A stretch of DNA of 64,000 bases from Minisyncoccota bacterium (lineage in GTDB: Bacteria; Patescibacteriota; Minisyncoccia; Phycocordibacterales; UBA9973): assembly GCA_031413715.1 (NCBI GenBank), contig JANOFO010000007.1:90338-154337 (forward strand), read 5' to 3'. The notes below the pieces were generated by a model. The model saw only the letters and a program-made list of their open reading frames with translations, did no database searches and was not told the DNA's origin. This document shows, piece after piece, positions 45,051-63,525 of the stretch. The position numbers and the translations under genes are program-made. Numbering within the stretch: position 1 is the stretch's first letter; each line of letters opens with the position of its first letter.

Positions 45051-45125
45051 TCCGGAGTAGCTCAGCGGTAGAGCAAGCGACTGTTAATCGCTTGGTCGCA
45101 GGTTCGATCCCTGCCTCCGGAGCCA
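45051..45125 (+). tRNA. tRNA-Asn (anticodon GTT), CCA encoded
   Basis: TCCGGAGTAGCTCAGCGGTAGAGCAAGCGACTGTTAATCGCTTGGTCGCAGGTTCGATCCCTGCCTCCGGAGCCA with anticodon loop CTGTTAA. Confidence 0.85.
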
Positions 45126-46727
45126 GATAGGATTAACATCAGCGAAAGCTGGTGTTTTTCCTTTATTGACGGGCTCTTTTGGCGGTTCGAAACTCTTTTT
45201 TTCGTCTACTTTTTCTCCCAACATCTGCATTACGCGGTCAGAGACCATTTTAAAGGCTTTGTGGTATGAAATCTCAACTTTCTTGCCATTTATCGTCGAG
45301 TTCGAAAATAAAAGGGACATAAGCAACTTCTTGTCGTCGACCATCTCGATACTGCTTCGGTTTACATAAATCTTTCGCGCTTCCTTTGCCATTTGTAGAA
45401 AGGTCGATCCCATATCGTAGTACTTGAGGTTGGCATTCTTATGCTTATTGAGGCTATCCATCACTTCCTCCTGCTCGATCTTGTACTGCTCATACTTTTT
45501 CTGATAGAAATCCTCGCTTATTTTGCCGTCGATCTTGTCGTCGTATATCTTGTCCAATCTCTGCGTGGCTACTTGGTAGCGTCGCTCGAGCTCGCCGGTG
45601 GCCTTTTCTCTGAATTCTATTTCCTCGCCGTGGCTTTCCTTGAGAGCTGTTTGGACCCAGCCAAGCATGTTTTCTATTGCCTCATCGTGCCTGGAGCTTA
45701 GTTGCTCAATATTCTCCATTACCTGCAAATCAACATTTTCCTGTTTGACCCATTCTCGCTGGGAACAGTTTTTATAATGGTTACAGTGGCCATACCAGTG
45801 GCCTTTCTGTATCTCCCACGTCACCTTTCCTTTGCATTCGTCACAGCGGAAGACATTTTTAAAAAGCGAATTATGCTTATTGTGTTTCGGCGTGCCGTTG
45901 CTATGCATAATGTCTTGGCACCGCATAAATAATTCTTTGGTGATCAATGGCTCATGTTCACCTTTACCGACCTTACCATTCCAACGATTCATTCCATAAT
46001 AAAACGGATCGCCGAGAAGCTGATGGACTCGCGAGTGACTCACTTTGTTTCCTCCTCGAGATCGCATGCCGAGCTTATACATTTCTTCGGCCAGTCTTTT
46101 TGTTGAGCTTACGTTTGTAGCATAGAGATCAAACATTTTCTTAACCAGTGGTGATTTTTCTTCGTCTAGCACATGAATTTTATGTCCTTTCTCGCCGATG
46201 GTTTTATATCCGAGCGGAGGCTTGCTCGGTAGCCAACCTTGAGCAAGTTTTTCTTTCTGTCCTTTCTTTACGTTTTCGGAAAGGAGTCGGATGTAGTATT
46301 CGGCCGTTGCTACTTTCACTCGCCACATAAACCATTCGTGCGACTTGGAGTCCTTGTGGAGAGTACATCCTTCTTTGACTAGATGGATCGTATGCTTTTC
46401 ATCGGCCAGTATCCACTCGTCGATTATCGGCACATCGGCAAAGTTACGGGTTAAGCGGTCAGTCGTTTCCACGAAGATCGTGTTGATCTTGGACTTGGTT
46501 ACATATTCCAACATTTCGTGAAATATCTTTCGCTGGATTTTTCCAGCGGCCGACTCTTGAATGGCAAAAACTTTTACGAGCTCAAAGCCGTTCCGGTCAG
46601 CATAATCTCGCAAAAGTTTCTCTTGAGCCGGAAGCGAATAGCCGGTGTCCTCCTGATCCTTGGAAGACACCCGGGCATAGCCTACGGCCTGCATCGATTG
46701 ATTTTCTTGATTCATTATCATAATCAT
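45084..46727 (-). CDS. large serine recombinase (integrase)
   Basis: AVGYARVSSKDQ catalytic motif, a recombinase domain, a zinc ribbon CDECKGK...HCNHYKNC and a coiled coil. The C-terminal 14 codons are antisense to the tRNA-Asn 3' half. Confidence 0.9.
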   Translation of the reverse strand: MIMIMNQENQSMQAVGYARVSSKDQEDTGYSLPAQEKLLRDYADRNGFELVKVFAIQESAAGKIQRKIFHEMLEYVTKSKINTIFVETTDRLTRNFADVPIIDEWILADEKHTIHLVKEGCTLHKDSKSHEWFMWRVKVATAEYYIRLLSENVKKGQKEKLAQGWLPSKPPLGYKTIGEKGHKIHVLDEEKSPLVKKMFDLYATNVSSTKRLAEEMYKLGMRSRGGNKVSHSRVHQLLGDPFYYGMNRWNGKVGKGEHEPLITKELFMRCQDIMHSNGTPKHNKHNSLFKNVFRCDECKGKVTWEIQKGHWYGHCNHYKNCSQREWVKQENVDLQVMENIEQLSSRHDEAIENMLGWVQTALKESHGEEIEFREKATGELERRYQVATQRLDKIYDDKIDGKISEDFYQKKYEQYKIEQEEVMDSLNKHKNANLKYYDMGSTFLQMAKEARKIYVNRSSIEMVDDKKLLMSLLFSNSTINGKKVEISYHKAFKMVSDRVMQMLGEKVDEKKSFEPPKEPVNKGKTPAFADVNPIWLRRQGSNLRPSD

Positions 46728-46826
46728 TTAGTTAATAATTTTGTTGGTTCGAATGCGACTTTTCGTACCACGACACACCCTATACTAATTTTTCGGACAC
46801 GCTAAGCTCGAGTTGCCCACAATCGG

Positions 46827-47435
46827 TTATTCTCCGTCTGCAAGCCACTTTTTTATTATCGCGGCTTTCGCATCGGGATATTGATTGCGTGCGAGTGCCA
46901 GTTGCATTTCATAAGGAATAAACTCCCAGCGTTCGCCTGGAGACATCTCGCTAAAGTTGATCTTATTAAGTTGAAGAGTTTCTTTCGGATGACCCTCCAC
47001 ACGATCCAGTAGTTCCTTGATAGCGGACAGCTTCACGCCATCGTTCTGGCTTCCCATAAGAGCGACGAGCATTTCGTTGGCCAAACGAAAGTTTTGCTCA
47101 CGAACACGTACACCGGCTTTTCGGACAATGTCCACGGTTTCCTGATGGATCGCATCCATTTCCTGTTCGTACAGCTCGTAGGTTTCCCGTAGCGTTCCCG
47201 ATTGCCTGAACCAGTCTTTGACGGTTTGCTCGGTGAATTTGGCTTTTCTACTTTTTTCAAACCGATGATTGATATCCTCGGCGATGTTTTGGTAGGAATG
47301 CCCTTTATATTTCAGCTCGAGTGCTCGCTCGTGGTATTTGGTTATGTGTTTAAGCTTGGCCATAAAAGTGGAGTTTAGTGGAGTCTTTTCTTGCTCTCGA
47401 TTGGGATGATGAGGAGCGGTCTTCCGGTTGTCCAC
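46827..47435 (-). CDS. hypothetical protein (phage-like cargo)
   Basis: 202-aa ORF; no motif recognised. Confidence 0.4.
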   Translation of the reverse strand: MDNRKTAPHHPNREQEKTPLNSTFMAKLKHITKYHERALELKYKGHSYQNIAEDINHRFEKSRKAKFTEQTVKDWFRQSGTLRETYELYEQEMDAIHQETVDIVRKAGVRVREQNFRLANEMLVALMGSQNDGVKLSAIKELLDRVEGHPKETLQLNKINFSEMSPGERWEFIPYEMQLALARNQYPDAKAAIIKKWLADGE

Positions 47436-47581
47436 TCGATGATGTAAGCGGCCGCTTGAGCTCTTACGACTTTGTCTTTGCTTCCCAGAAGTGAGATCAG
47501 AACTTTCGCCGCTTTTGGCATGTTCTTTCGGATGATCTCATCAGCGATTTCAATTTCAGTTTTCTTTTTATGATTGGTCAT
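47375..47581 (-). CDS. small hypothetical protein overlapping the downstream gene by 61 nt
   Basis: 68-aa ORF. Confidence 0.3.
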   Translation of the reverse strand: MTNHKKKTEIEIADEIIRKNMPKAAKVLISLLGSKDKVVRAQAAAYIIEWTTGRPLLIIPIESKKRLH

Positions 47582-47586
47582 GGATT

Positions 47587-48174
47587 TTAGTAATTACGCT
47601 TGTGTCGATTCGACGAGAACGACATCTTGGCCACGAGACTCGCTTTCATCTCGTTTATTTTCTTAATTTGGTTTTGGCCGTTAACTTCTTTATAATTTTC
47701 TTTAATTTCTTTTAAACCCTTAGCTTCTATATCATCGCCGTCTGACGCAGTGTGCATGTCATGCCGTCCGGTATTTCGTGTTGATCGGCCTCCGTCCTGC
47801 TTCAAATGTAGGACGGAGAGCAATGTAATGCTTCGGGGTTTAAACTTTGCATCTTCACCACGGATTTTAGTGATAGCGATAAAAGTCCACTCCTCGAGCT
47901 TGTCCAAACATTTCTTTATCGTTCGCCAATCTTTGAGGCCAGAGTAAATCAAAAGCGTCTTATTTGATGCTTCGATGGTCTGGCTTGCCTTATTGGAGGC
48001 AATTTCGGTTAAGGCGCAATAGACATTACGAAGATTCCGATATGCATCAACACCAATGTGCTTATCAAGCCACTGCTGGCGCATAAACCGCAAAGCCGGT
48101 TTGTCTTGGTAGGCAAACGGGGCTTCGCGGTAATCTCGGACCTTATGCTTCTTGTCGCTTGGGTACATTGTCAT
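47587..48174 (-). CDS. hypothetical protein (phage-like cargo)
   Basis: 195-aa ORF. Confidence 0.4.
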   Translation of the reverse strand: MTMYPSDKKHKVRDYREAPFAYQDKPALRFMRQQWLDKHIGVDAYRNLRNVYCALTEIASNKASQTIEASNKTLLIYSGLKDWRTIKKCLDKLEEWTFIAITKIRGEDAKFKPRSITLLSVLHLKQDGGRSTRNTGRHDMHTASDGDDIEAKGLKEIKENYKEVNGQNQIKKINEMKASLVAKMSFSSNRHKRNY

Positions 48175-48442
48175 ATGGTTCTATGAGCGTTCGACCACTG
48201 GTGATGTCCTCAGTGTAGAATCGCGACAAAGCATCGTAATAATTTACGAGATTGAATGCTATGTCGTGCAGGTCTTGGTCATTCACTTCCTGACCGAAGT
48301 CTCTTTTGAGAATCACGCGAAGCTTCTCCAGCGTTTCCGGTTTTATTTTCACAGGTCTTAGTTCTCGGCATAAATCCGTACTTTGACCTGTTTGAGCTCG
48401 TTGAAGAACGCTTGAGGCTCGACTTGAAGCTCGCGGCTCCAA
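48143..48442 (-). CDS. small hypothetical protein
   Basis: 99-aa ORF overlapping its neighbours, typical of compact phage operons. The alternative ORF 48358..48600 overlaps it. Confidence 0.3.
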   Translation of the reverse strand: MEPRASSRASSVLQRAQTGQSTDLCRELRPVKIKPETLEKLRVILKRDFGQEVNDQDLHDIAFNLVNYYDALSRFYTEDITSGRTLIEPYDNVPKRQEA

Positions 48443-48766
48443 TATCGCTTCACCAGAGAATCCAAGTCCGGGCTCTTGCCGAAGCAGAAGAGCACCTTGT
48501 GCGGATTTCCCCGATCCACGACCTCAAGAGAATCAGGAATAAATAATAAAAGCACCGCGACCAATGCCAGGTCGGCGGTTTTGTAGTAATTGTTTTCCAT
48601 ATTTTGGCATTTTCATTGTCATTAACTTCCTCTCACACACTTTTATTGTTGCAGTTGGACCGCACCTCTTTACATACTCTTTAGGTAAATTCAGAAACAA
48701 AAAAGATGGCTATTTATGCCGCTTGTAAAAAAGTTATCAAGAAGGGTCGGGAGAGTACCAGCGATT

Positions 48767-49396
48767 TTATTCCTTTTTCAAAATTATGCCCGGATAAATT
48801 CGATATCCGGAGTCTCGGTATCCTTCTATTAGTTTAAAGACACCGAGTTCTTTATGGGCGATCCTGTTCATGGCATCAACGGCACTCTCAAGCGATTTCC
48901 TGGATACGAAACCGCAGAGTTCTATCAGAGTTTCAGTTGGCACATAAGTTTTGTGAGCGATCAATGTCCGGAGCATCTTGTCCCGGTAGCTATTTACTTC
49001 CAAACGATAGCAATGGTCGCTTTTAGGTTCGCAGTAGAGTTCATGGTCAGTTGAAAAATAGACTATCGTTTTGTTTTTGATTGGCTGGATCGGCGTGGTT
49101 ACTTTTTCAAACCAATAATCCACCACGTCCTTAGCTATCCTTTTTCTCTCGCTTTTGTTTTGTTTCTGGTATTCCTGTATGCCGGATAAAATGTTTTCTG
49201 TTTTGGCTAGCCGGTTTTTGTATTCCAGTTGGGCTTCCCACATTTTTTGACTCAAAGTTTTTACGACTTCGGTCGCTTCTCTTAAAGCCAACACGAGTCC
49301 GGCATTATCAAAAGCATTTTGGACCGCGTCTTTCGTTGCGATAATATCAAATCTATAACAGCTCTCGATCGAGACTTTCGTCATTGTCATAATCAT
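48767..49396 (-). CDS. hypothetical protein (phage-like cargo)
   Basis: 209-aa ORF. The 10-bp inverted repeat gctcgcgatc...gatcgcgagc lies just upstream at 49413..49454. Confidence 0.4.
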   Translation of the reverse strand: MIMTMTKVSIESCYRFDIIATKDAVQNAFDNAGLVLALREATEVVKTLSQKMWEAQLEYKNRLAKTENILSGIQEYQKQNKSERKRIAKDVVDYWFEKVTTPIQPIKNKTIVYFSTDHELYCEPKSDHCYRLEVNSYRDKMLRTLIAHKTYVPTETLIELCGFVSRKSLESAVDAMNRIAHKELGVFKLIEGYRDSGYRIYPGIILKKE

Positions 49397-49664
49397 TATC
49401 AGTTAAACAAAAGGCTCGCGATCCGTAATCACAAAAGTGACGTAGATCGCGAGCTCTTGGGCCCGGAATGCCTTTCAGGTTTGCCTCGTAGGGCGCTTAT
49501 TTAACTGTTGGATTCATTTTATCACTTTTACCTGTTTAGCCATAGTTCAGCGCGGTGGACAAAAAGTACCGATTCTGTCCAGTACAGCGATTTAACTGCT
49601 CAAAATCGGCGTTTCCGTAATGATACAAAAGTGTACTAGTTCGGAAATGGTTAAACTAATTATC

Positions 49665-49693
49665 TTGCAATCGATTCAAATATAGCATATAAT
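49665..49693 (+). promoter_or_regulatory. sigma-70-like promoter for the abiEi-abiEii operon
   Basis: TTGCAA, then a 17-nt spacer, then TATAAT, about 40 bp upstream of the ATG at 49733. Confidence 0.35.
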
Positions 49694-49732: not shown

Positions 49733-50350
49733 ATGGACAATAAACCAACCAAAGGTGAATATGTAGAGGTCTTATTGAGATCTCCTAAAACCGTCTTTTC
49801 CACCAAAGATGTTGCTTTGTTGTGGGGTGAAGAAAAAGAACAGACCGTTAGCGGACGATTGTACAAATACGTTAAGGCTGGAAAGTTGATCAAAATTCAT
49901 CGTGGTATTTATGCAAAAGACAAAAATTATAATCGCTTTGAATTGGCTACTCGCATTTATACTCCCTCCTACATAAGCTTTGAGACTGTATTGACTCGAA
50001 CTGGTATCAATTTCCAATTCTACGGAAACATTTTTGTCGCCTCGTACGTGACTCGAAATATTGAAGCTGGTGATCAGAAAATATCATTTATCCGGATGAA
50101 AGACTATGTCTTGAGTAACACTACCGGCATTGAGCATCAGGATGGCATTGCTACGGCCACCAAAGAGCGGGCTTTCTTGGACCGGATTTATGTCAGCAAG
50201 GATTATCATTTTGATAACTTAAACGCATTGGATTGGGACAAAGTCTTTCAGATTTTGCCGATCTATAACAATAAACGGATGGAGAAAAAAGTTAAATCCT
50301 ACTTTAAGCATTATAAAAGTGATCAACCAACTCAATCAAAAAATATATGA
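49733..50350 (+). CDS. abiEi: AbiEi-family antitoxin / transcriptional regulator
   Basis: N-terminal winged-HTH pattern ...RLYKYVKAGKLIKIHRGIYA. It overlaps the downstream toxin gene by 4 nt (ATGA). Confidence 0.7.
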   Translation: MDNKPTKGEYVEVLLRSPKTVFSTKDVALLWGEEKEQTVSGRLYKYVKAGKLIKIHRGIYAKDKNYNRFELATRIYTPSYISFETVLTRTGINFQFYGNIFVASYVTRNIEAGDQKISFIRMKDYVLSNTTGIEHQDGIATATKERAFLDRIYVSKDYHFDNLNALDWDKVFQILPIYNNKRMEKKVKSYFKHYKSDQPTQSKNI

Positions 50351-51042
50351 AATTAGATTACTCAAAACACAAAAATATTTTGTTGCAGATTTTGAAGGAT
50401 ATTTATTCCGATACATCTATCGCGCCTCATTTGGGCTTTAAGGGTGGAACGGCCGCTCTGTTGTTCTATGGCTTGACCCGTGATTCGGTTGATTTGGATT
50501 TTGATCTATTGAACGAAGAAAAAGAAACTGAAGTATTTGAAAAGATTCAAAAAATGATTTCCAGTTACGGGACTGTCGTTGATTCTAGAATTAAGAAATT
50601 CAATCTATTGAATGTTCTCTCATATGCCCCTGGAGCTCAAAGAATAAAGGTTGAAGTTAATCGTAGAAATTTCAGATCGAAGTATGAGCTAAAGACCTTG
50701 CTTGGCATATCAATGTTGGTAATGGCGCAGGAAGATATGTTCGCCCATAAGCTTATGGCTATGCACGAGCGTATCGGTAAAACGAGCCGTGATGTGTACG
50801 ATGTTTGGTATTTCTTGGAAAATCACTGGCCGATTAATAAAGAGATTGTTGAACAGCGTTCCGGCAAGACATTCAAGGAAGTTTTGCAATTGACTGCCGA
50901 ACAATTGGAGAAAATGGACAATAAGCACGTTCTCGATGGCTTAGGTGATTTTCTTACGGAGCCACAGAAAGACTGGGCTAGAGCAAAGTTAAAATCCGAG
51001 ACTATCTTTCTTTTGAAAGCTCGGATGGAAAGCGAAAAATAA
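50347..51042 (+). CDS. abiEii: AbiEii/AbiGii-family nucleotidyltransferase toxin (DUF1814)
   Basis: FKGGTAALLFYGLTRDSVDLDFD NTase G-x(n)-DxD motif and SRDVYDVWYF motif. Confidence 0.8.
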   Translation: MKLDYSKHKNILLQILKDIYSDTSIAPHLGFKGGTAALLFYGLTRDSVDLDFDLLNEEKETEVFEKIQKMISSYGTVVDSRIKKFNLLNVLSYAPGAQRIKVEVNRRNFRSKYELKTLLGISMLVMAQEDMFAHKLMAMHERIGKTSRDVYDVWYFLENHWPINKEIVEQRSGKTFKEVLQLTAEQLEKMDNKHVLDGLGDFLTEPQKDWARAKLKSETIFLLKARMESEK

Positions 51043-51047
51043 CATTT

Positions 51048-51239
51048 ATGCCAAAGGAAATCGCCATCAAAACTGAGAAAGAAACCTACATCAAGTGCAA
51101 GAAGTGTGGCACTGAGATTTTTTCTATTACGTATGGGGATTTAACCTCATGTAAATGTGGGGCTGTTTCTGTCGATGGCTCTAAAGAATTAGTGAGAGTT
51201 GTCGGTAAACCAGAGGATTACGAAGAAATCCAAAAATAA
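51048..51239 (+). CDS. small zinc-ribbon protein
   Basis: CKKCGTEIF...CKCGAVS CxxC...CxC pattern, 63 aa. Confidence 0.35.
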   Translation: MPKEIAIKTEKETYIKCKKCGTEIFSITYGDLTSCKCGAVSVDGSKELVRVVGKPEDYEEIQK

Positions 51240-52917
51240 ATTTATGCCTGAAAAAGATTTACAAAAAGAAATAATAGATTTGAAAGCCGAAGTAAAAAGG
51301 CTGAAAAAAAGTCGTCAGTACGGCTTGGTTTGGGAGCATAAGCCCGAGGATATTGTTTTAGAGAGCAATGAGAATATTCCCATTCTTAAGGAAGTAAAAG
51401 GCAAAAAAGTCTTTATTGATAGTTTGGTGCCAAACAACTTTTTAATCGAAGGCGATAACTATCACGCCTTGGCAGTTTTGAATTACACTCACCGCCGACA
51501 ATTTGATGTGGTTTATATCGATCCTCCCTATAACACCGGCGCTAGAGATTGGAAATACAACAATGACTTCGTTGATATAAACGATGAGTACAGACACAGT
51601 AAATGGCTGTCTTTGATGGCTAATAGACTTGTGCTAGCAAAAAATCTTCTCAAGGAAGATGGTGTACTCGTTATTGCGATCGACGACAACGAAGTGCATC
51701 ATCTACGGGTTTTACTCGAACAGCTGATGCCCTCGTATGACGTTACTTCGATAACTCTTGTGCATAATCCGAGAGGAAACATAACAAATAACTTCGCACG
51801 TACCCACGAGTATGCTCTTTTCGTTATCCCGAAAGGGCTATCTGCTATATCCCGCACGAAAAAGGATAATTCGGTATTAAGAAAAATGCGAAGATGGGGT
51901 CATAATTCAACACGAACAGCACGACCCACGATGTTTTATCCGGTCTATGTCAAAGATGGGAAGATTTCCCGAATCGGAGAAGCTCCAGAGAAAGATTTTC
52001 ATCCAAAAAATAAAAACATCAAGTTGGCCACCGGCGAAATTGAGGTATGGCCTATCGATCAGGACGGCGTAGAACGACGTTGGAATTTCGGACTTGATAG
52101 AGTGAATGATGAACTTGAGAGAATGGTTGCTGTTGAAGCAAAGAGTGAGTTTGATATTTTCTTAACGCAAGAAGATACGACGACCAAAACAGTCTGGACG
52201 GAAACGGACCTAGAAGCCGGAAGACATGGATCGACTTTGGTGAAAACAATCACAGGAAAAGACTTTCCTTTCCCTAAATCCATTCACACAGTCAGAAAGT
52301 GTTTGGAATTAATTATTGGTAATCGTCCAAATGCAAAAGTCCTAGACTATTTCGCAGGTTCCGGAACAACAGGACATGCGGTATTGGAAATCAATAAAGC
52401 CGATGGAGGCAACCGGCAATTTGTTTTGTGTACGAACAATGAGAGTAATATCTGCGAGGAAATAACGTATGAGCGAGTTAAAAGGGTAATAAAGGGCTAT
52501 AAGAACGGAAAGGATGAAAAAGTAGTGGGTATTCCAGCAAACTTTGCTTATTACAAAACAGATTTAATAAGTGTTGGCTTGCTAAAGAAAATCTCGGACG
52601 ATGCAAAAGTTAAGGTTACCTACCAAGCTGGAGAGATGATCGCTGTGCGTGAGGATACACTGAATGAAGTCGAGAAGAACGACTGGTGGCAAATCTTCGA
52701 GGGACGAGGACGAATGACTGCAATTTATTTCAAAGAGGATAAAGCCAAGCTTGCCGAACTGATAGCAAAATTGGAAAAGAAAGATGAGCCTATTGCTCTG
52801 TATATCTTCAGCTGGGGCAAGAACGAGTACAAGGGCGAATATTCTTCCGCCAGTATCCGAGTCGAGGATATTCCCGAGCCAATCCTTGAGGTGTATAAGG
52901 AACTAAACCGCCTATAA
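51199..52917 (+). CDS. mod: Type III restriction-modification methyltransferase (Mod), N6-adenine/N4-cytosine class
   Basis: VVYIDPPYNTG motif IV precedes FAGSGTTGHAV motif I (beta-class order). The likely true start is the ATG at 51244. Confidence 0.85.
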   Translation: MSVNQRITKKSKNKFMPEKDLQKEIIDLKAEVKRLKKSRQYGLVWEHKPEDIVLESNENIPILKEVKGKKVFIDSLVPNNFLIEGDNYHALAVLNYTHRRQFDVVYIDPPYNTGARDWKYNNDFVDINDEYRHSKWLSLMANRLVLAKNLLKEDGVLVIAIDDNEVHHLRVLLEQLMPSYDVTSITLVHNPRGNITNNFARTHEYALFVIPKGLSAISRTKKDNSVLRKMRRWGHNSTRTARPTMFYPVYVKDGKISRIGEAPEKDFHPKNKNIKLATGEIEVWPIDQDGVERRWNFGLDRVNDELERMVAVEAKSEFDIFLTQEDTTTKTVWTETDLEAGRHGSTLVKTITGKDFPFPKSIHTVRKCLELIIGNRPNAKVLDYFAGSGTTGHAVLEINKADGGNRQFVLCTNNESNICEEITYERVKRVIKGYKNGKDEKVVGIPANFAYYKTDLISVGLLKKISDDAKVKVTYQAGEMIAVREDTLNEVEKNDWWQIFEGRGRMTAIYFKEDKAKLAELIAKLEKKDEPIALYIFSWGKNEYKGEYSSASIRVEDIPEPILEVYKELNRL

Positions 52918-52922
52918 AATAT

Positions 52923-55201: not shown

Positions 55202-56386
55202 ATGATATTAGAACCAGAAAAATCAGAGGAAGAAATAGTTGATAACTATCGCACCGATACGCTTTATACGCATAAATTCAAAAATGATGCCGGTAAGTAT
55301 TTCACTATTGTTTCAAGAGATGGTAATAATGTGCCAGATGCAGTCGATGTAGAACATCCTTATCCTGTAATAAGGAATAAGATTAAAACCACATTTACTT
55401 TCATTAAACAAAATAATGAAATTACGGATGTATCGTTTAAGCGCTTCAAGTACTACAAGAATAAAGGCTATGTTGAGCAAGAAGAGCAAATTGTTTTTTC
55501 ATTCCCGTTTTTCAAACAGATTATCGGCTACCTACAACTTCTCTCGGAACTAAATCTTGTTGATGTGAATGAGAGGAGAATAGCACTTGCTGATGACAAC
55601 CTACCAAATTTAGACGATGAGACCAAGAAGAAGATTAAAACTCTTTTACTACGAAAGGACGGGCAACAAATCATAGAAGAGGTGTTGGCTAGTGGAATTA
55701 TAACCTCGACTGACATAGTTAATATTGGATATCGCAAGAAGCAACTTGAGATTTTCGACAAACTTATAAACCAAGCTGATTATTTCTCGACCTATGTATC
55801 AGAAAATGAACTTACTGATACCCGCCACGAATCGGTCTGGCAACATTTTTTCCATACTAACGATTGGATTTTTGGTTATGGATTAGATTATCGTTTTCTT
55901 GGCATCCTACAAAAAGAAGCTCATGTAACCGGCTCGGATGTTGCTGGGAAGGATTCTGTGATAAACGATTTTCTATTAGGATGTAGTAAATTTACAGTTT
56001 TAGTTGAATTAAAGAAGCACGACACTCCGCTATTTGGTAAAGACAAGAATCGCTCAAATTCTTGGACTCTTTCCGATGACTTAATATCCGGTCTTTCTCA
56101 AATCCTAGAACAAAAAGCGAGCTGGCAGATTTCGGCGGAAACAAATCCTAGTGGAAATTTTGATGATCAAGGAAACCCAATAAAACAAAAGACTATTGAC
56201 CCCAAAAGTATTCTTGTTATCGGATCAACTAAACAATTTGACGGGGATGAAAAAGAAAAACAAATCAAAGCAAAAACATTTGAACTCTTTCGGCGTGATT
56301 CTAGGAATATAGAAATTCTCACTTACGATGAATTGTACGAGAGGGCGAAGTTTATTGTTGAACATAAATTTAAAGCTAAAAAATAA
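55202..56386 (+). CDS. DUF4263 (Shedu SduA-like) PD-(D/E)xK nuclease-domain protein
   Basis: C-terminal ...WQHFFHTNDWIFGY...DFLLGCSKFTVLVELKKHDTPLF...SQILEQKASWQ...KSILVIGSTKQF...NIEILTYDELYERAKFIVEH matches the DUF4263 layout (D-x(n)-ExK, then ...TYDdLl). Its start is 2 bp after the res stop. Confidence 0.55.
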   Translation: MILEPEKSEEEIVDNYRTDTLYTHKFKNDAGKYFTIVSRDGNNVPDAVDVEHPYPVIRNKIKTTFTFIKQNNEITDVSFKRFKYYKNKGYVEQEEQIVFSFPFFKQIIGYLQLLSELNLVDVNERRIALADDNLPNLDDETKKKIKTLLLRKDGQQIIEEVLASGIITSTDIVNIGYRKKQLEIFDKLINQADYFSTYVSENELTDTRHESVWQHFFHTNDWIFGYGLDYRFLGILQKEAHVTGSDVAGKDSVINDFLLGCSKFTVLVELKKHDTPLFGKDKNRSNSWTLSDDLISGLSQILEQKASWQISAETNPSGNFDDQGNPIKQKTIDPKSILVIGSTKQFDGDEKEKQIKAKTFELFRRDSRNIEILTYDELYERAKFIVEHKFKAKK

Positions 56387-56643: not shown

Positions 56644-59013
56644 ATGAATATGAAAATATTATATAAACTCAGTTCGTTTTTATTAGTATTCTCTCTCGTT
56701 ATCCTACCAACCGCTCCGGCCTTTGCTCAACTGGGAGATGTATCAGCACCGACAGTTGAAGCTTCTCCGGCTCCAGCACCCGAGCCCACACCTCCTCCAG
56801 TAGTTGAACCTACACCGGCTCCCGTACCGGAAACAGAAGGTCTTGAACCAGAAGTTCAGACTACAACTGAAGTATCAACTCCTCCAGTAACTCAATCCGG
56901 GCCCGAAGTTTCCGTAGGAACTGGATCAGGAGTTACGGTTACGGATACAATTGCACCCACCATCTCCGGTGTGGCCGATCTCTCACTTGGTTTAAGCGAA
57001 GCCACGATCGTTTGGACTACAGACGAACTTGCCGTCTCCCAACTTGAATATGGCACGACACAAAGCTATGGCCAGAGCGTCACACTTCCCGCAACTGGTC
57101 TTCTTGCTCATACAGCCATACTTCTCAACCTTTCTCCAAATACCACATATTACTACTGCATCCACGCCACTGATCTAGTCGGCAACACGAGAAATTCCTG
57201 CGGGCATACGTTCCAAACAGCAGCGCATCAGAGTGTCGAGGACACGACACCGCCAAATGTCACCTTGATTACTGTTGCTCCCATCACCACCACATCGGCA
57301 ACGATAAACTTCACCACCGACCTTGTCGGTAATGCTCGCGTCGAGTACGGCATGACTGCAGGGTATGGAGAAAGCACACCGCTTGATACGACCTTGAGCT
57401 TGAACCACAGTGTCGCTCTTTCAAATCTAACTCCAAACACCTTGTACCACTATCGTGTCATTACAAGCGACGAGCTTGGCAATGAGAGCATCACTTCCGA
57501 CGAGACATTTACCACCGAATCTATTGCCGCCGTTGATGCGGGAGTGACTACTCCTGAAACAGTGAACGTAGGTACGGGACAAACGGGTGTGAATGCATCG
57601 GTTGTCATTTCCGCTGTCGATACCGTATCAATCAGCACCTCGGCGGCAACGATCACTTGGCACACCAATCTTCCATCGGATTCACAAATCGAATACGGCG
57701 ACAGCGAGAATTTCGGGTCGCAAAGCACTTTGAGTTCAGCATTGACGACTTCGCATTCCGTCACGCTCACCGGTCTCGCCCCAAATACCAATTATATTTT
57801 CCGGGTGAAATCGAAGCCTCTTGGCGCAAGCGTTGCTACTATTTCGCAAAACTATGAGTTCAATACGCTCAATCATTCGATTCCAGTCGTCGCTCCGGCA
57901 AACATCATTTCCGTTTCTTCCGGATCGGTGACGAACACTGGGGCGACTATCAGTTGGACGACGGACAAGGATGCAACATCGCAAGTTGAATATGGATTGG
58001 ACACGACATACGGCTCGCGCAGCACTTTCCAGTCAGGCCTTGTCACAAGCCACTCGGTTTCTCTCGCAGGACTTTCTTCCGGCACGACATACCACTACAG
58101 AGTCAAGTCGGTTGATGAAGCTGGTAACATTACCTTTTCGGAAGATTACACCTTCACCACATCGGGTACTTCTTCGGGTGTTGTGGCACCGCATGTCACA
58201 CCAACACCTATCGGTGAGGCAGTTACGCCCGTAGTCGACGTAAACGGAGCCGACTCGCAGGTGATCTTCGAGATCAATGAGGGGAATCCAGATATTGTCG
58301 AAGATGTCGTAATCGAGCGTGACGGACAAGTGATCTACGAAGGAACAAGCCAGACCTTTACTGACACTAATCTTGTAAACGGTCATGACTATCACTACAC
58401 CGTCTTTGCTCGTGGGGGCGGAGGATCAAGTTCGGGGAGAGTCAACATTACCATCGCTCCGCAAGCAGGAGTTCGACAGGTTCAGTTTAACGAAAGTGGC
58501 ACACTTGCATCATCAACCCCAGCATTTCACTTCGTGAAGACATGGCAAAAAGGTGACAAGGATATCGAAATCGAACATTTGCAGGAAATTCTCGTTGCAG
58601 ACAAAGATTCATATCCGGAGAAATATGTGACTGGTTACTTCGGCTCTTTGACTCAAGCCGCACTCAAACGTTTTCAGGCAAAGCATGGACTTTCGCAGAC
58701 AGGAATTGTTGATGTGGTAACCCAAGCAAAACTTAATACTGTCTCTCATTCTGAAACAAAGCTCAATGTCCCGCATGATTATGTTGTCTTCTCAACTGAC
58801 CTCAAACGTGGTGATCAGGGCGAAGCGGTCAAAGACCTGCAACAATATCTGATCCATGAGGGTAGCTACGTCGAGGCACTCGTCTCCGGCTACTTCGGTA
58901 ATTACACCCACAATGCGGTAAAGAAATTCCAGACCAAATATGGTGTGACTCCGGTATCAGGGTTCGTCGGTTACAAAACACGTCACAGAATGCAACAGCT
59001 TACTGGAATGTAG
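56644..59013 (+). CDS. secreted surface protein: Pro-rich linker, five tandem FN3-like (purple-acid-phosphatase-N-like) repeats, two C-terminal peptidoglycan-binding domains
   Basis: Signal peptide ...PTAPAFAQ, APAPEPTPPPVVEPTPAPVP, five copies of the Q(L/V)EYG.T..YG......L.T.HSV.L.GL.PNT.Y.YRV pattern, and two PG_binding_1-like GD(K/Q)...L(Q)..L......GYFG..T..A(L/V)K(R/K)FQ.K(H/Y)G modules. Confidence 0.7.
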   Translation: MNMKILYKLSSFLLVFSLVILPTAPAFAQLGDVSAPTVEASPAPAPEPTPPPVVEPTPAPVPETEGLEPEVQTTTEVSTPPVTQSGPEVSVGTGSGVTVTDTIAPTISGVADLSLGLSEATIVWTTDELAVSQLEYGTTQSYGQSVTLPATGLLAHTAILLNLSPNTTYYYCIHATDLVGNTRNSCGHTFQTAAHQSVEDTTPPNVTLITVAPITTTSATINFTTDLVGNARVEYGMTAGYGESTPLDTTLSLNHSVALSNLTPNTLYHYRVITSDELGNESITSDETFTTESIAAVDAGVTTPETVNVGTGQTGVNASVVISAVDTVSISTSAATITWHTNLPSDSQIEYGDSENFGSQSTLSSALTTSHSVTLTGLAPNTNYIFRVKSKPLGASVATISQNYEFNTLNHSIPVVAPANIISVSSGSVTNTGATISWTTDKDATSQVEYGLDTTYGSRSTFQSGLVTSHSVSLAGLSSGTTYHYRVKSVDEAGNITFSEDYTFTTSGTSSGVVAPHVTPTPIGEAVTPVVDVNGADSQVIFEINEGNPDIVEDVVIERDGQVIYEGTSQTFTDTNLVNGHDYHYTVFARGGGGSSSGRVNITIAPQAGVRQVQFNESGTLASSTPAFHFVKTWQKGDKDIEIEHLQEILVADKDSYPEKYVTGYFGSLTQAALKRFQAKHGLSQTGIVDVVTQAKLNTVSHSETKLNVPHDYVVFSTDLKRGDQGEAVKDLQQYLIHEGSYVEALVSGYFGNYTHNAVKKFQTKYGVTPVSGFVGYKTRHRMQQLTGM

Positions 59014-59069
59014 CATTTGGTTTTTCTCAGCCTTGCTTAGTATACCCCCTAGGGGGTATACTTGTTTAT

Positions 59070-59345
59070 ATGAAATATATGGATGATAAAAATAAAGGTC
59101 GGATCATTCGGCGACTCAAGCTTCTTGAGGGTCAAGTGCGTGGCCTTCAGAAAATGGTTGAAAATGATACCTATTGCATCGACGTGATCACTCAAACGTC
59201 GGCAGTAAAACAAGGACTCTCAAATGTTGAAGACTTGTTGCTCGAAAATCATCTCAGTGGATGTATCCTCGACCAAGTAAAATCTGGTCAAACCAAGAAA
59301 GCAAAGGAGGAAATTCTAAAGGTATATAAACTCAAGAGAAAATAA
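59070..59345 (+). CDS. csoR: CsoR/RcnR-family metal-sensing transcriptional repressor
   Basis: ...LEGQVRGLQKMVENDTYCIDVITQTSAVKQGL...HLSGCI has the Cys-His-Cys metal ligands of the DUF156/CsoR fold. Confidence 0.8.
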   Translation: MKYMDDKNKGRIIRRLKLLEGQVRGLQKMVENDTYCIDVITQTSAVKQGLSNVEDLLLENHLSGCILDQVKSGQTKKAKEEILKVYKLKRK

Positions 59346-59346
59346 T

Positions 59347-61653
59347 ATGCCCAATAATATTCATAGCCAAACCTACAGAGTAAAAGGAATGCACTGCGCT
59401 TCGTGCTCCTCGATCATCGAGAAGACCTTTAAGAAAGTAGAGGGTGTGCAATCCGCAGAGGTAAACTACGGCACAGAGAAAGCCAAAGTATCTTTTGATC
59501 CGTCAAAGACGAATCCTCACGACCTTTCAAAGCATATCGAGCCCCTTGGTTACTCACTAGAAGTTCCTTCCACTGCCGAGGAAATGGGAATGTCTGAAAG
59601 CGAGCATGCTGGACACCTAGGTCTCAATCAATCAAAAAAAGAAAAGCTTGCCGAGGTCGCTGATATGCGGACAAAGGTAATGACGGCTATCCCTCTCGCT
59701 ATTTTCAGCATCATCGTCATGGGCTGGGATATCTTTGCTCAATTTGGAATCTTTTCCGCAATGTCTACAGTTGTGTCTGAGTTCGTCCATCACCTTTTAC
59801 CGATCTTTGCGACATACGTACTCTTTGTGGTCGGCAAGCCCTACCTTTTAGGTTTCTATCGCTTCTTGCGTTACGGCAAAGCAAACATGGATACACTCAT
59901 CGGTATCGGTACGTCAATCGCATTTCTATACAGCTTTATCATCACCGCTTTTGAAGAACCGCTCCGCCAGTTTATAAATGTTGAGCATACATATTACGAC
60001 GTTACCATCGTAGTGATAGCTTTTATTACTCTCGGCAAATATCTCGAAGCGAAGGCAAAAATTAAAACCGGAGACGCTATAGAGAAACTACTTAATCTCC
60101 AAGCTAAGACAGCCATCGTCATCCGAGACGGCAAAGAGCAGGAAGTACCTATCAATCAGGTTGTTCATGGCGACAGTATTGTGGTCAAGCCAGGTACTCG
60201 CGTTCCGGTAGACGGGACCGTGTCTGAGGGCTCGTCATTTGTAGATGAATCAATGGTTACCGGAGAGTCCATGCCAATTGAGAAAAATGTCGGCGATCTT
60301 GTTGTGGCCGGTACGATCAATACGACTGGATCATTTGTATTTAAAGCAACAAAGGTTGGATCGGAGACACTGCTTGCCCACATCATCAAAATGGTTGAGG
60401 ACGCGCAAGGCAGTCGTGCTCCGATTCAAGCACTGGCTGATAAAATTTCGGCTGTATTCGTTCCGATTGTCTTAGTCCTCGCTTTTGTGGCACTAGGTGC
60501 GTGGCTTCTTTTAGGCACGTCTACGCTCGGTTTCTCTCAAGCTCTTTCGTACGGACTTACTTCGTTCGTTGGCATTCTGGTCATCGCATGTCCGTGTGCG
60601 CTTGGGCTTGCGACACCGACGGCGATTATTGTTGGTGTCGGTAAGGGGGCGAAAGAAGGAATTTTAATTAAGGACGCCGCGACTCTTGAAAAGCTTCATA
60701 AGGTCAATACGGTTGTGGTAGACAAGACCGGCACGATCACTAAAGGCAAGCCGGAACTTGTCAGTGTGCAGAATCTATCAACATTACCGGAAGAAAAACT
60801 CATCTCTATTCTTGCAACGCTTGAAGCCAAATCCGAACATCCTATTGCTCATGCCGTACTAGAATATGCGAAGACAAAAAATATTCCTCACATGTCAGCT
60901 TCTGGTTTCGAGATTATCAAAGGAAAAGGGGTAAAAGCCGTTATTGAAAACACCGAATACTTTGCTGGAAATACAAAACTCATTTCTGATCTCAAACTAT
61001 CTTTTGATCTAAATAAAATTGAGGCGGAAACCTTACAGGGCAAGACTCCGGTGATCCTTGCTACAAATGAGGTGGTGCTGGGTGTGGTTATGGTGGCAGA
61101 TGCTATCAAACCAGAGGCTGTTGAAGCGGTAAAAAGTCTGCACAAGCTTGGCATAAAAGTCATTATGCTAACCGGTGATCACAAAAACACCGCTCAGGCA
61201 ATCGCTAAAGAAGTCGGGATAGACGATGTGGTGGCCGAAGTGCTTCCGGAGGATAAGCTCAATAAAATCAAAGAGTTGCAGAGTCAGGGTCGTATCGTTG
61301 CTATGGCTGGTGACGGCATCAATGACGCCCCAGCACTTGCTCAAGCCGATGTGGGTATTGCTATGGGGACCGGCACGGACGTGGCTATCGAGACTGCTGG
61401 CATCACACTTTTACACGGTGATATCTCCAAGTTGGTAAAAGCCGTTCGCTTGTCCAAGCTCACTATGCGAGGAATAAAACAAAATCTTTTTTGGGCTTTT
61501 ATCTATAACATCATTGGTATTCCACTTGCCGGAGGATTATTTTTCCCGATTTTTGGTTGGCTCTTGAATCCAATATTTGCAGGGCTTGCGATGGCATTCT
61601 CAAGCGTTTCGGTGGTCGGCAACTCATTACGACTTAAGGCAATGAAAATATAA
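59347..61653 (+). CDS. copA: copper-translocating P1B-type ATPase
   Basis: N-terminal HMA GMHCASCSSI, TM CPC motif CPCALGLATP, DKTGTIT phosphorylation site and GDGINDAPAL. Confidence 0.95.
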   Translation: MPNNIHSQTYRVKGMHCASCSSIIEKTFKKVEGVQSAEVNYGTEKAKVSFDPSKTNPHDLSKHIEPLGYSLEVPSTAEEMGMSESEHAGHLGLNQSKKEKLAEVADMRTKVMTAIPLAIFSIIVMGWDIFAQFGIFSAMSTVVSEFVHHLLPIFATYVLFVVGKPYLLGFYRFLRYGKANMDTLIGIGTSIAFLYSFIITAFEEPLRQFINVEHTYYDVTIVVIAFITLGKYLEAKAKIKTGDAIEKLLNLQAKTAIVIRDGKEQEVPINQVVHGDSIVVKPGTRVPVDGTVSEGSSFVDESMVTGESMPIEKNVGDLVVAGTINTTGSFVFKATKVGSETLLAHIIKMVEDAQGSRAPIQALADKISAVFVPIVLVLAFVALGAWLLLGTSTLGFSQALSYGLTSFVGILVIACPCALGLATPTAIIVGVGKGAKEGILIKDAATLEKLHKVNTVVVDKTGTITKGKPELVSVQNLSTLPEEKLISILATLEAKSEHPIAHAVLEYAKTKNIPHMSASGFEIIKGKGVKAVIENTEYFAGNTKLISDLKLSFDLNKIEAETLQGKTPVILATNEVVLGVVMVADAIKPEAVEAVKSLHKLGIKVIMLTGDHKNTAQAIAKEVGIDDVVAEVLPEDKLNKIKELQSQGRIVAMAGDGINDAPALAQADVGIAMGTGTDVAIETAGITLLHGDISKLVKAVRLSKLTMRGIKQNLFWAFIYNIIGIPLAGGLFFPIFGWLLNPIFAGLAMAFSSVSVVGNSLRLKAMKI

Positions 61654-61655
61654 CT

Positions 61656-62669
61656 ATGAAAACCTACACATTCCATGTCACTGGTACCCACTGTGCATCA
61701 TGCAAAATCTTAATCGAGGATGTTTTAAGTGAGCAATCTTTTATTAAGAGCTCGCAGGTTAACTTGAAAAAGGAAACGGTCACTATCGAGATCGAGAGCG
61801 AACAAAGTGCCGAAGAAGTGGCGCAACTACTGACAGGTAAAATAAAACCCAACGGCTACACACTTTCAGTTAAAAAAGTGATTCAGGAAAAGAAATCTGA
61901 CGATGTTATCTGGAAAGCAATCCCAATCGGTCTTATATTCTTGATACTATTTTTTATATTGCAAAAGTCAGGCATTCTTAATCTCGGTATAGGCGGCACC
62001 ACAACACCGGCGACAAGCTTTATTATCGGCCTCATCGCATCGGTGTCGAGCTGTCTTGCGATAGTTGGCGGTCTGATCCTTTCGCTCTCTGCGAAAGTCG
62101 CGCAGGACGAAAGCACCAAGACCAGTAAAAAGCAGTTTATCCTATTCCACGGCGGTAGACTGTTTGGCTTCGCAGTACTCGGTGGTGTATTGGGTCTCGT
62201 CGGGCAAGCGATCGGTATCAGCTTCACCTTTTCTGCGATCCTTGGCCTCATTGCATCGAGCGTGATGATACTGCTCGGTCTCAATCTGGTGGGCGTTATC
62301 AAGAAAAATAAGGTCTCTCTGCCAACCGGCATATTCGCGTATTTTAGAAAAATAGAACATTCGACCTTTGCTCCGATCCTCATCGGTATTGGCACGTTCT
62401 TCTTGCCGTGCGGATTCACTCAAGCGATGCAGGTCGCCGCGCTTTCAAGCGGATCATTCGTGTCCGGACTCCTGATCATGCTTTCGTTTGCGCTCGGTAC
62501 GCTCCCAATGCTCGCGCTCCTTTCATTCGGATCGGTGTCATTCGCTCACTCGAAGCACGCGCCACTGTTTTTCAAATCAGCCGGTATTGTTGTGATCGGA
62601 CTCGGAATCTTTGCACTCCTTGCAGGTCTTGCCGGACTTGGAATCATCCGTCCTTTATTTAACATTTAA
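61656..62669 (+). CDS. HMA-domain protein fused to a polytopic membrane domain (putative metal permease, TauE/SafE- or CcdA-like)
   Basis: N-terminal HVTGTHCASCKILIE HMA motif, then more than six hydrophobic helices with SSCLA and LPCGF Cys motifs. Confidence 0.5.
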   Translation: MKTYTFHVTGTHCASCKILIEDVLSEQSFIKSSQVNLKKETVTIEIESEQSAEEVAQLLTGKIKPNGYTLSVKKVIQEKKSDDVIWKAIPIGLIFLILFFILQKSGILNLGIGGTTTPATSFIIGLIASVSSCLAIVGGLILSLSAKVAQDESTKTSKKQFILFHGGRLFGFAVLGGVLGLVGQAIGISFTFSAILGLIASSVMILLGLNLVGVIKKNKVSLPTGIFAYFRKIEHSTFAPILIGIGTFFLPCGFTQAMQVAALSSGSFVSGLLIMLSFALGTLPMLALLSFGSVSFAHSKHAPLFFKSAGIVVIGLGIFALLAGLAGLGIIRPLFNI

Positions 62670-62689
62670 CTTTTTGATATAATAAGCTT

Positions 62690-63094
62690 ATGAACAAAAC
62701 CGCCTCAATCATCATCACAATCGCCCTCGTTGTCGGTATCGGCATTGTCTTTCTTGGCGGTTCAAAATCAAATAACAATACTTCTGCTGTTTCTAGCCAA
62801 CCTACATCAAACGTCGAGATAAAAGGCGGCGTTCAATACGTAACGATTGATGCGAAAGCCGGTTATGCTCCAAAAGTATCAACGGCGAAAGCTGGCATTC
62901 CAACCAAGCTCGTTGTAAAAACGAACGGCACCTATGACTGCTCGGCTTCTTTGGCGATTCGGTCAATCGGATATCAAAAAATACTGCCGCAAACGGGAGA
63001 AGAAACAATCGACATTGGCACTCCGAAAGCCGGAGAGCCATTACAGGGAGTGTGTGGTATGGGAATGTATAACTTTTTGATTAATTTTAGTTAG
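62690..63094 (+). CDS. membrane-anchored cupredoxin-like copper-binding protein
   Basis: N-terminal TM anchor and C-terminal ...GTYDCSAS...GVCGMGMYNF, resembling the Cys...(H/C).M.M ligand pattern of cupredoxins. Confidence 0.45.
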   Translation: MNKTASIIITIALVVGIGIVFLGGSKSNNNTSAVSSQPTSNVEIKGGVQYVTIDAKAGYAPKVSTAKAGIPTKLVVKTNGTYDCSASLAIRSIGYQKILPQTGEETIDIGTPKAGEPLQGVCGMGMYNFLINFS

Positions 63095-63376
63095 ACTAAA
63101 CCAGTCATATTTGCTTAATGTTTCAAAAGTTAAGCAAATCGTCCCATGCGCTCAAATTTGGTTTTACGGCTCATCAGTGTCGCAATTGGTGCAAAGCTCT
63201 TACTCTCGACACAAAGCTCGCCACAGGGGCAAACAGCTGGGGAATCAGGGGTTACAGGTTCTCGTACTTGGCCAGCAATCCTTTCATCTGGTCTAAAACC
63301 ACGGTAGGATATTTGTACTCCTCCGCCCAGTCAAAAGTTCGAAAATCGTTGAGCAGGGCGAGCTCGTAAAAATCTT

Positions 63377-63410
63377 AAGTCCCCCATCTGGGGGCTTTTG
63401 ATTTTTTGAG
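63377..63410. terminator. rho-independent terminator-like hairpin (bidirectional)
   Basis: aagtccccc atct gggggcttt followed by ttgattttttg, with an A-run on the 5' side. Confidence 0.45.
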
Positions 63411-63505
63411 CTCCGGAGAGAAAGCAAACTGCTTTGCTTTCGTGCAGGGAGCGAAAGATTGGTGCTGTTTTGTTTACAAAACCACCAATTCACGCGCTGT
63501 AGGCG

Positions 63506-63525
63506 AGATCTCCTGCCTCCGGAGC
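63506..63525 (+). repeat. direct repeat of the tRNA-Asn 3' end (candidate attR of island 2)
   Basis: gatctcctgcctccggagc here versus gatccctgcctccggagc at 45105..45123; 14 nt identical plus flanks with one single-base indel. Confidence 0.45.

Follow-up and report, generated by a model that had tools for sequence, protein, structure and literature searches.

Where does an island inserted at a tRNA gene begin and end, and does the most striking direct repeat at the locus mark its ends? The question is raised by a 64,000-nucleotide stretch of genome from a Minisyncoccota bacterium (GenBank assembly GCA_031413715.1, contig JANOFO010000007.1, positions 90,338 to 154,337, forward strand), hereafter the window, in which a tRNA-Asn gene is overlapped by the end of a large serine recombinase (LSR) gene and 14 bases of the tRNA 3' end recur once farther on. 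An initial annotation had taken this repeat for the attachment (att) sites of an island of about 18.4 kb. The reading presented here, to which we give a probability of about 0.85, is an 18,240-bp LSR-driven island at the tRNA-Asn 3' end, bounded by GAGC cores, with the attachment site of the element (attP) lying within the LSR gene and splitting it on integration. The island is ordinary in kind; what stands out is the architecture of its integrase. The argument turns on the following features:

45051..45125, + strand: tRNA-Asn(GUU), the target (attB), called by ARAGORN and by the Rfam tRNA model (70.9 bits)
45120..45123: attL core GAGC, left copy, predicted from the sequence and from the cores of relatives to hold the crossover dinucleotide
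45084-46727, - strand: LSR open reading frame (ORF) as integrated, 547 aa, overlapping the tRNA by 42 nt and ending at a TAA stop in the anticodon loop
45124..46727, - strand: LSR gene body, residues 1 to about 535, with catalytic, recombinase and putative zinc-ribbon/coiled-coil regions and a K/P/E-rich linker ending ...NPIW
63252..63363, - strand: detached 3' end of the LSR gene, 36 codons and a stop (LALLNDFRTFDWAEEYKYPTVVLDQMKGLLAKYENL, then stop), in frame with the body once the island ends are joined
63326-63363, - strand: right-end signature GCTC-N12-GATTTTCGAAC-TT-TTGACTGGG, the putative P arm of attP
63360..63363: attR core GAGC, right copy, placed by signature, reading frame and comparative layout

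The tRNA gene and its 42-nt overlap by the 547-aa LSR ORF stand as the initial annotation had them, and so does its central proposal, an integrative island with a serine integrase at the tRNA-Asn 3' end, borne out by island-free relatives and by an LSR family found at tRNA genes. Its attL, a long repeat inside the tRNA, gives way to a crossover at the final tRNA bases (GAGC, 45120-45123), and its size estimate is close to 18.24 kb with a right edge about 150 bases too far to the right.

The integrase is a large serine recombinase, as judged from its predicted domains. The catalytic domain (PF00239, 7.4e-24) spans residues 14-164, with R19, S21 and S22 (..ARVSS..) invariant in 30 homologues, and the recombinase domain (PF07508, 5e-17) spans residues 189-276. 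A zinc ribbon (PF13408) is below significance in this LSR, annotated in many homologues and weak in a second LSR of the window (described below); in the 30 homologues C295, C298 and C321 do not vary and C315 hardly varies. The AlphaFold2 model of one homologue, P0100, has strands followed by long helices at 319-441. The LSR matches a PHROG integrase family (2.8e-73) and has 1,859 homologues at E <= 1e-20, every source-named one of them from Patescibacteria; by these sequence matches it is placed in a large family specific to that lineage, also called the candidate phyla radiation (CPR). No relative closer than about 32% identity was found among 50,697 phage records, and no exact match of the LSR or of one gene of the island's core module is on record in the databases looked up.

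The right end was located by comparison with other loci, for which 86 loci encoding LSR relatives at 39-98% identity were fetched (compared contigs and loci carry L numbers). In its general form, GCTC-N12-GNNTTTCGAAC-NN-TTGANTGGG, the right-end signature has one match in the window, where none is expected, with GATTTTCGAAC-NN-TTGACTGGG itself on the minus strand at 63326-63347. The signature is also found at the far island ends of L050, L066, L071 and L088, always exactly 12 nt after GCTC, and the L050 contig starts exactly at GCTC (position 1). Variants, five in all, occur elsewhere; those in L111, in L113 and at an internal junction of L066 have the same spacing. Read on the other strand, GCTC is GAGC, the terminal bases of tRNA-Asn. 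Only GAGC is common to the junctions in the window, in L111 and in L071, and the cores of L071, L111, L050 and L066 intersect on GAGC/GCTC. The compared junctions place recombination within the 4-bp GAGC core at 45120-45123 and 63360-63363, so that the island is 45124-63363, 18,240 bp. So few shared bases at the att junctions are compatible with the 2-bp crossover of serine integrases, which needs no long homologous core.

The reading frame leads to the same position. Joining 63363 to 45124 (reconstructed attP junction ...GTTGAGCAGGGCGAGCCAGATAGGATTAAC...) keeps the LSR frame and yields a 571-aa ORF ending ...NPIW-LALLNDFRTFDWAEEYKYPTVVLDQMKGLLAKYENL, with the stop codon at 63252-63254; both halves of the gene are intact and in frame, and the 12-nt spacing from GCTC equals four codons. 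As integrated, the ORF runs instead through the tRNA antisense to 45084 and acquires the 12-residue tail LRRQGSNLRPSD before the stop. The detached 36-residue tail (DFRTFDW...) aligns with the C-termini of 19 full-length homologues under the pattern L-x3-[DN]-x-F-R-T-x-x-W ... P-E ... L-L, with L535 and R542 nearly invariant, and matches residues 514-543 of the 547 residues of P0100 in a pairwise comparison (E = 7e-6). In the AlphaFold2 model of P0100 the linker (492-513) is disordered (predicted local distance difference test score, pLDDT, below 50) and is followed by C-terminal helices at pLDDT of about 70-82. Because the joined island ends continue the frame into a conserved homologous tail, attP is placed by the sequence inside the LSR's own ORF, where integration would replace the 36-residue tail by 12 residues read from the tRNA antisense. 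The database holds both forms: of the best 120 homologues, pattern matching finds an antisense-tRNA tail (..WLRxxDSNxxP) in at least 53 and inspection by eye the native FRT-type tail in roughly 25-30; the rest mostly stop at contig ends, a few residues beyond the conserved ..PIWL. An ORF on the + strand at 63118-63369 is probably spurious.

At the left end, GAGC comprises the final two acceptor-stem bases of tRNA-Asn, the discriminator and the next C. The encoded CCA occupies 45123-45125 and is read on the other strand as a Trp codon. Since neither the tRNA-Val and tRNA-Ser genes of the window nor the tRNA-Asn genes of island-free relatives encode CCA, that of tRNA-Asn appears from sequence comparison to be supplied at least in part by the island; tRNA-Asn genes adjoining an LSR of the same subfamily do encode it. 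In five aligned junctions the island sequence is conserved as far as ...CATCCYATMTGGCTC, which codes for H-P-I-W-L and whose TGG is the reverse complement of the tRNA CCA. Past this point the acceptor, T and anticodon stems differ from tRNA to tRNA, with both strands fitting the local host even where the LSRs are 98% identical, which makes the tRNA host DNA as far as the discriminator.

These stems also bear on a crossover inside the tRNA, in the T-loop or the anticodon loop, by which the island would carry a replacement 3' part of the tRNA as islands with tyrosine integrases do. Elements that target tRNA genes classically restore the tRNA 3' end, the motif GTTCGA is present in the P arm, and both the LSR stop and the end of a Logan contig (L001, weighed below) fall in the anticodon loop. 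We regard this crossover as barely credible: LSRs that are 98% identical adjoin tRNAs with different acceptor and anticodon stems, the junctions of six islands share GAGC only, no displaced tRNA 3' half was found at the right end of the island, and the position of the stop is explained by a fixed in-frame TAA in the antisense ..GTTAA... An anticodon-loop crossover, considered on account of the LSR stop and the contig end at 45086, was ruled out by the match of both strands of all tRNA stems to the local host. A T-loop crossover, considered on account of repeats in the window and L071 that both start at tRNA position 57, was ruled out by the GCTC-N12 signature, by the junctions of tandem islands and by L111.

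The distance of GTTCGA from the core is 12 nt in attB and 17 nt in the P arm. The offset resembles the 5-bp shift of the zinc-ribbon-domain (ZD) motif between attB and attP of a Listeria integrase (Rutherford et al. 2013, PMC3783163) and is kept as a hint only, because the motif also codes for F-R-T, is replaced by TTTAGAAC or TTCAGAAC in L066 and L111, and is without a counterpart in the P' arm.

Directly behind the tRNA, within the 3' end of the LSR coding region, lies a further small feature:

45140..45159, + strand: small hairpin (cagc-gaaa-gctg) with a T-run

Its stem co-varies among relatives (cagc/gctg in the window, ggacg/cgtcc in L023, cagagc/gctctg in L022), and it may be an island-supplied terminator of the tRNA, part of the P' arm, or both.

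Insertion at tRNA ends is general in this family. A tRNA on the opposite strand overlaps the end of the LSR ORF in 44 of the 86 loci (31 tRNA-Asn, the remainder Gln, Ser, Asp, Arg, Val and Ile); the ORF ends at a contig end in 23, and no tRNA was called in 19, which include tandem arrays and a tRNA-Asn with a group I intron (L024).

Group I introns occupy the anticodon loop of tRNA-Asn in L024 (3509-3810), L104 (19147-19495; Rfam RF00028, 69.7 bits) and L113 (18520-18656). Intron-bearing tRNA-Asn genes are missed by ARAGORN and still have LSR islands at their 3' ends.

The repeat that had drawn attention to the locus is real. The 14-mer CCTGCCTCCGGAGC has two copies only, at 45110-45123 and 63512-63525, even when one mismatch is allowed, and none is expected (100 shuffles); with one indel the similarity extends left into the T-loop over about 19-27 nt, in agreement with the imperfect repeat of roughly 19 bp first described. 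Its second copy is the 3' end of a structured element that follows a host hairpin outside the island:

63380..63407, + strand: host terminator hairpin (tccccc-atct-gggggc and a T-run), natively right behind tRNA-Asn
63410..63525, + strand: tRNA-Asn-like structured element, host-encoded

Relatives were found and ranked by Fmt (methionyl-tRNA formyltransferase), a housekeeping gene 1.8 kb left of the tRNA. Among GTDB species representatives the closest by Fmt are Kaiserbacteria and Lloydbacteria metagenome-assembled genomes, at 51% identity or less and not syntenic; the informative loci are these:

L104, Fmt 71%: intron-bearing tRNA-Asn, 38-nt hairpin, element; no island and no LSR
L109, Fmt 71%: a gene directly after tRNA-Asn; element absent
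L105/L106, Fmt 64%: tRNA-Asn, 4 nt, palindromic hairpin, element homologue that shares an identical block of 32 nt; LSR absent
L111, Fmt 60%: tRNA-Asn with CCA, 6.8-kb LSR island, GAGC, hairpin, element

In L104, L105 and L106 the layout of the unoccupied site is that of the two flanks joined, in relatives at the level of genus or family, not of the same species. The attB reconstructed from the window (...CCCTGCCTCCGGAGCTCGTAAAAATCTTAAG...), with tRNA-Asn, a short spacer, the hairpin and the element, equals the empty sites of L104 and L105 in layout; under the 14-mer model it would read ...CCTGCCTCCGGAGCAAAATTTTTAGCC. The empty site expected by the initial annotation is thus seen in island-free relatives, but with the hairpin and the element, both of the host, directly after tRNA-Asn. 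In L104 the tRNA and the element each contain cctgcctccggagc, the two copies lying about 150 nt from one another.

If the 14-bp repeat were the att core, the island would extend to 63525 and the tRNA-like fold would be its P arm, that is, part of attP. Besides the improbability of two exact copies by chance, the similarity reaches the last four T-loop bases, the repeat and a 20-nt repeat in L071 begin at one and the same tRNA position, and the sequence from 63526 (...AAAATTTTTAGCCCC) resembles the trailer of a native tRNA that has no encoded CCA. On account of this trailer and of the tRNA-like fold the 14-mer was at first accepted as attR; it was ruled out by the same pair of copies in island-free relatives. 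In L104 both 14-mers flank only the hairpin and the element, and because both copies are present there without an island the repeat pre-exists in the host lineage. The element stands directly after tRNA-Asn in L105/L106 and outside an island whose end bears the family signature in L111, some 150 nt separate the 14-mer from the GCTC-N12 signature and in-frame LSR tail to its left, and in tandem arrays the LSR end abuts GCTC without a tRNA-like element between. An att core at the 14-mer is on these grounds very improbable. The second copy, taken initially for attR, lies within a conserved structured element in L104, L105/L106 and L111 as well, and the comparison identifies the repeat as a host feature unrelated to the junction. 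Among 37 tRNA-adjacent loci, repeats of the tRNA end of at least 9 nt upstream of the LSR were found in L071 only.

The element has an acceptor-like stem of 9 bp, identical to the tRNA-Asn stem, together with a 9-bp hairpin and a GCAGG/CCTGC 'T-stem' that encloses a long hairpin; its fold has a z of -5.2. It matches no Rfam family, and no tRNA is called there by ARAGORN or, with E allowed up to 10, by the Rfam tRNA model. The element is not a tRNA, sharing only the acceptor-like and T-stem-like helices. Homologues lie at 18985-19108 (-) in L104, 7701-7837 in L105 and 20791-20867 in L111 (cut by the end of the locus), and in each the helices that resemble the acceptor and T stems follow the sequence of the local tRNA-Asn. 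Compensatory changes are found in 11 of 42 predicted pairs among three sequences, which, with a 32-nt block identical between hosts at 64% Fmt identity, points to selection on the structure. The island would have pushed the element 18 kb away from tRNA-Asn, and the tRNA from its terminator. A viral contig collection scanned with the LSR, the element pattern and the 32-mer of the element gave no match for any of them.

A weak match to the covariance model of the element (32.4 bits, E = 3e-6) was seen in L086 at 12680-12791 (+); a tRNA-Ser with an LSR island is about 1 kb away.

The element is a candidate for a new non-coding RNA or for a relic of an older insertion. As a relic, the hairpin and element (about 63377-63525) would be a miniature, non-autonomous remnant of earlier integration flanked by a duplicated tRNA 3' end, and the main island would have inserted between it and the tRNA. 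In L104, direct repeats of the tRNA 3' end enclose the unit. L109 lacks it despite a near-identical tRNA-Asn, in L105 the unit has lost 7 nt of its 3' strand, the distant host of L071 has a more reduced version, and the acceptor and T-stem sequences of the unit track those of the local tRNA. The identity of the 32-nt block between hosts with Fmt only 64% identical and the 11 of 42 compensatory pairs speak for selection on structure instead, and no integrase or other mobility gene accompanies the unit. We hold the relic as a tentative possibility, unlikely on balance. The boundaries of the island are unchanged whichever of the two the element is.

Several observations weigh against an island that integrates from a circle through an attP in its own integrase gene. 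No excised circle or same-species empty site was seen, the closest island-free relatives being 64-71% identical in Fmt, and the sequence right of the element is not syntenic with theirs. There was no circular contig among the contigs tested, and for this reason the free circular form is one that we infer. In the chromosomal contexts read, full-length LSRs are all in tandem island arrays (L043, L066, L113/L114) and none is free. There the right-end segment of the proximal island supplies, in frame, the end of the distal LSR, whose tail is thus borrowed from the neighbour; the LSR end meets GCTC directly, without an intervening tRNA-like element, and in L113/L114 the proximal LSR adjoins an intron-bearing tRNA-Asn. 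No recombination directionality factor (RDF) was identified in the island. A core of 4 bp is by itself too short for significance; the boundary rests on signature, reading frame and comparative layout. Finally, Logan contig L001 (SRR20217197), which carries the left flank, stops at window position 45086 in the anticodon loop and not at the core. This end is probably a branch in the assembly graph caused by tRNA sequence common to other organisms. A second contig of that run, L002, is 100% identical to the window over 62.6-64.0 kb, and both contigs are from the same organism as the window.

On the reading favoured here, the circular form would encode the 571-aa LSR, in which a K/P/E-rich disordered linker ending ..NPIW precedes the conserved helical tail. 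Integration would detach the tail to the far end of the island (63252-63363), away from the body (45124-46727), and the integrated gene would read through the tRNA antisense and end after 12 surrogate residues at the TAA of the anticodon loop. The island would leave as a circle, and only an excised or incoming element would make the full-length integrase, which would tie the form of the enzyme to the state of the element.

Compared with phiC31, Bxb1, A118/LI, SPbeta SprA and CcrAB of SCCmec, the LSR has the same resolvase and recombinase domains, a probable zinc-ribbon/coiled-coil region, att sites that share few bases, and an integrase gene at the end of the element. It differs in its target, the terminal bases of a tRNA gene and not a protein-coding gene or intergenic site, and in an attP that would lie within the integrase ORF, with a conserved C-terminal module replaced on integration. 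The 'suicidal' class I integrases of the archaeal SSV type have their att site inside their own gene, target tRNA genes and are fragmented on integration (PMC8371274). The likeness lies in exactly these three properties. Theirs are tyrosine recombinases of archaeal viruses and plasmids, with the gene cut into two substantial parts, whereas the bacterial serine enzyme would lose the last 36 of 571 residues and gain 12, its catalytic and DNA-binding domains intact. The LSR thus behaves like that class and is no member of it, since it is a serine and not a tyrosine (R..KxxR..Y) recombinase.

For mycobacteriophages, Broussard et al. in 2013 reportedly described integration-dependent immunity with attP inside the repressor gene. 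That system has in common with the present one an attP in a coding sequence, a protein C-terminus changed by integration and a protein form coupled to the state of the element; there the repressor is affected and the integrase is of the tyrosine type, and here the integrase itself would be altered. Small serine recombinases of the phiRSM type, cited in PMC7192596 (ref. 22), are said to target the tRNA 3' end. With these and with classical tRNA islands (P4-like or tyrosine integrases) the island shares a site at the tRNA 3' end, an integrase gene adjoining an intact tRNA, variable cargo of defence and metal resistance, and tandem accretion at the same tRNA. It differs from them in its 4-bp core and in having no long direct repeat made by the element, the visible long repeat being that of the host.

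By analogy with the archaeal 'suicidal' integrases, the tail swap may influence directionality or stability. Rather doubtful is a more specific proposal, that the swap is a built-in switch of directionality or commitment, the full-length LSR of the circle being fit for attP x attB and the integrated variant being either locked, in the manner of the archaeal 'suicidal' integrases, or able to carry out attL x attR with no RDF of its own kind needed. If true, this would be RDF-independent control of direction in large serine recombinases, seemingly used by at least two large LSR clades of Patescibacteria with more than 1,000 database proteins each, and if the swap affects activity at all it would offer a new handle on the control of serine-integrase directionality. 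At least 53 of the 120 best homologues are chimeric, and att-site prediction and integrase mining for genome engineering would mis-assign both the protein end and attP. The CPR has large serine integrase families that target the terminal bases of tRNA genes and have attP within their own coding sequence; and a striking direct repeat can be a host feature and not an att site. In a literature search of incomplete coverage, no description was found of CPR serine integrases or of a serine integrase split by integration.

The remainder of the island consists of a core module and cargo:

46827..49396, - strand: core module of genes for 202, 68, 195, 99, 80 (DUF5659) and 209 aa, in the same order in relatives (Pfam, PHROGs)
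49733..51042, + strand: AbiEi/AbiEii abortive-infection toxin-antitoxin pair (PADLOC 1.4e-57 and 5.4e-78; Pfam)
51199..55199, + strand: Type III restriction-modification (R-M) system, Mod 51199-52917 and Res 52923-55199 (PADLOC MTase_III 2.2e-70, REase_III 1.4e-18; Pfam)
55202..56386, + strand: Shedu SduA (DUF4263) nuclease (PADLOC 8.9e-148; Pfam SduA_C 1.7e-29)
56644..59013, + strand: 789-aa surface protein with FN3/purple-acid-phosphatase-N repeats and two PG_binding_1 domains
59070..63094, + strand: copper cluster, with CsoR (59070-59345), a CopA-type P1B ATPase (59347-61653), an HMA-DsbD_2 membrane protein (61656-62669) and a cupredoxin (62690-63094)

Pfam and PADLOC agree with the cargo as first annotated (AbiE, Type III R-M, DUF4263, FN3/PG-binding protein and csoR-copA-HMA-cupredoxin). 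Matches by blastn to L019, L024 and L018 (87-90% identity) cover 45.05-49.5 kb and nothing beyond, so the island is composed of a conserved 4.4-kb core module and variable cargo. No virion or packaging genes (capsid, portal, large terminase, tail) were found in it by Pfam or PHROGs, and the small terminase subunit gave weak matches only (E = 1e-3 to 8e-3); as virion genes are absent, the element is classed as an integrative island, not as a prophage. Such islands bring defence systems and metal resistance to hosts with tiny genomes and stack in tandem at tRNA-Asn.

The G+C content of the island is 0.435 vs 0.40-0.41 for the host. Tetranucleotide usage correlates with that of the host at r = 0.78 (core module), 0.91 (defence block), 0.36 (FN3 gene, the most atypical in the window) and 0.78 (copper block), compared with 0.91-0.95 for host chunks of equal size. 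Three of the four blocks are atypical in composition and the defence block is borderline, so that the compositional contrast expected by the initial annotation holds for the G+C content and for those three blocks.

A second island lies at tRNA-Glu in the same window. Both it and the splitting of the integrase had been missed by the initial annotation. Its features are:

18696-25040: tRNA-Glu(UUC) island, 6,345 bp, G+C 0.316 (the whole feature, including the tRNA, is 18623-25040)
18690-18695 and 25035-25040: 6-bp cores GGTCAC
18657-20309, - strand: second LSR, 550 aa, 25% identical to the first and overlapping tRNA-Glu likewise
24897-25034, - strand: predicted detached tail of the second LSR, 45 codons in frame (LMIPDSKPYVNFFKELEKIISNFE...), homologous to the C-terminus of P0246
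22590-24107: AriAB-like (PARIS/OLD-family) ATPase, cargo

By its sequence the tRNA-Glu island appears to be an independent replicate of an integrase split by integration. The tail matches the C-terminus of full-length P0246 (E = 7e-8), and the 1,157 homologues of the second LSR (E <= 1e-30) mostly end in peptides read from the antisense T-arm (..VTLPGIEPGL..); like the first, this LSR is a member of a large Patescibacteria family. A regular-expression search for the FRT-type tail motif of the first LSR family gave no match at the right end of this island; the tail was recognised by reading the sequence directly. No repeat of the tRNA-Glu end was found, as expected with a core of only 6 bp. A terminator hairpin follows the right-hand GGTCAC core.

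Within the tRNA-Glu island, between two hypothetical genes, 21407-21525 (+) matches LOOT RNA (Rfam RF03000, 89.8 bits vs a gathering score of 46.4). Just outside it and the host terminator is a structured intergenic element at 25122-25240 (+), with a 14-bp closing stem and a T-loop-like motif, GGTTCGAT (-42.9 kcal/mol, z = -4.5; no Rfam match). The region from 25255 to 29374, between this island and ordinary host genes, is somewhat atypical (G+C 0.389, tetranucleotide r 0.927) and codes for hypothetical proteins, with a weak match to a type IV secretion system (T4SS) pilin at 28187-29374.

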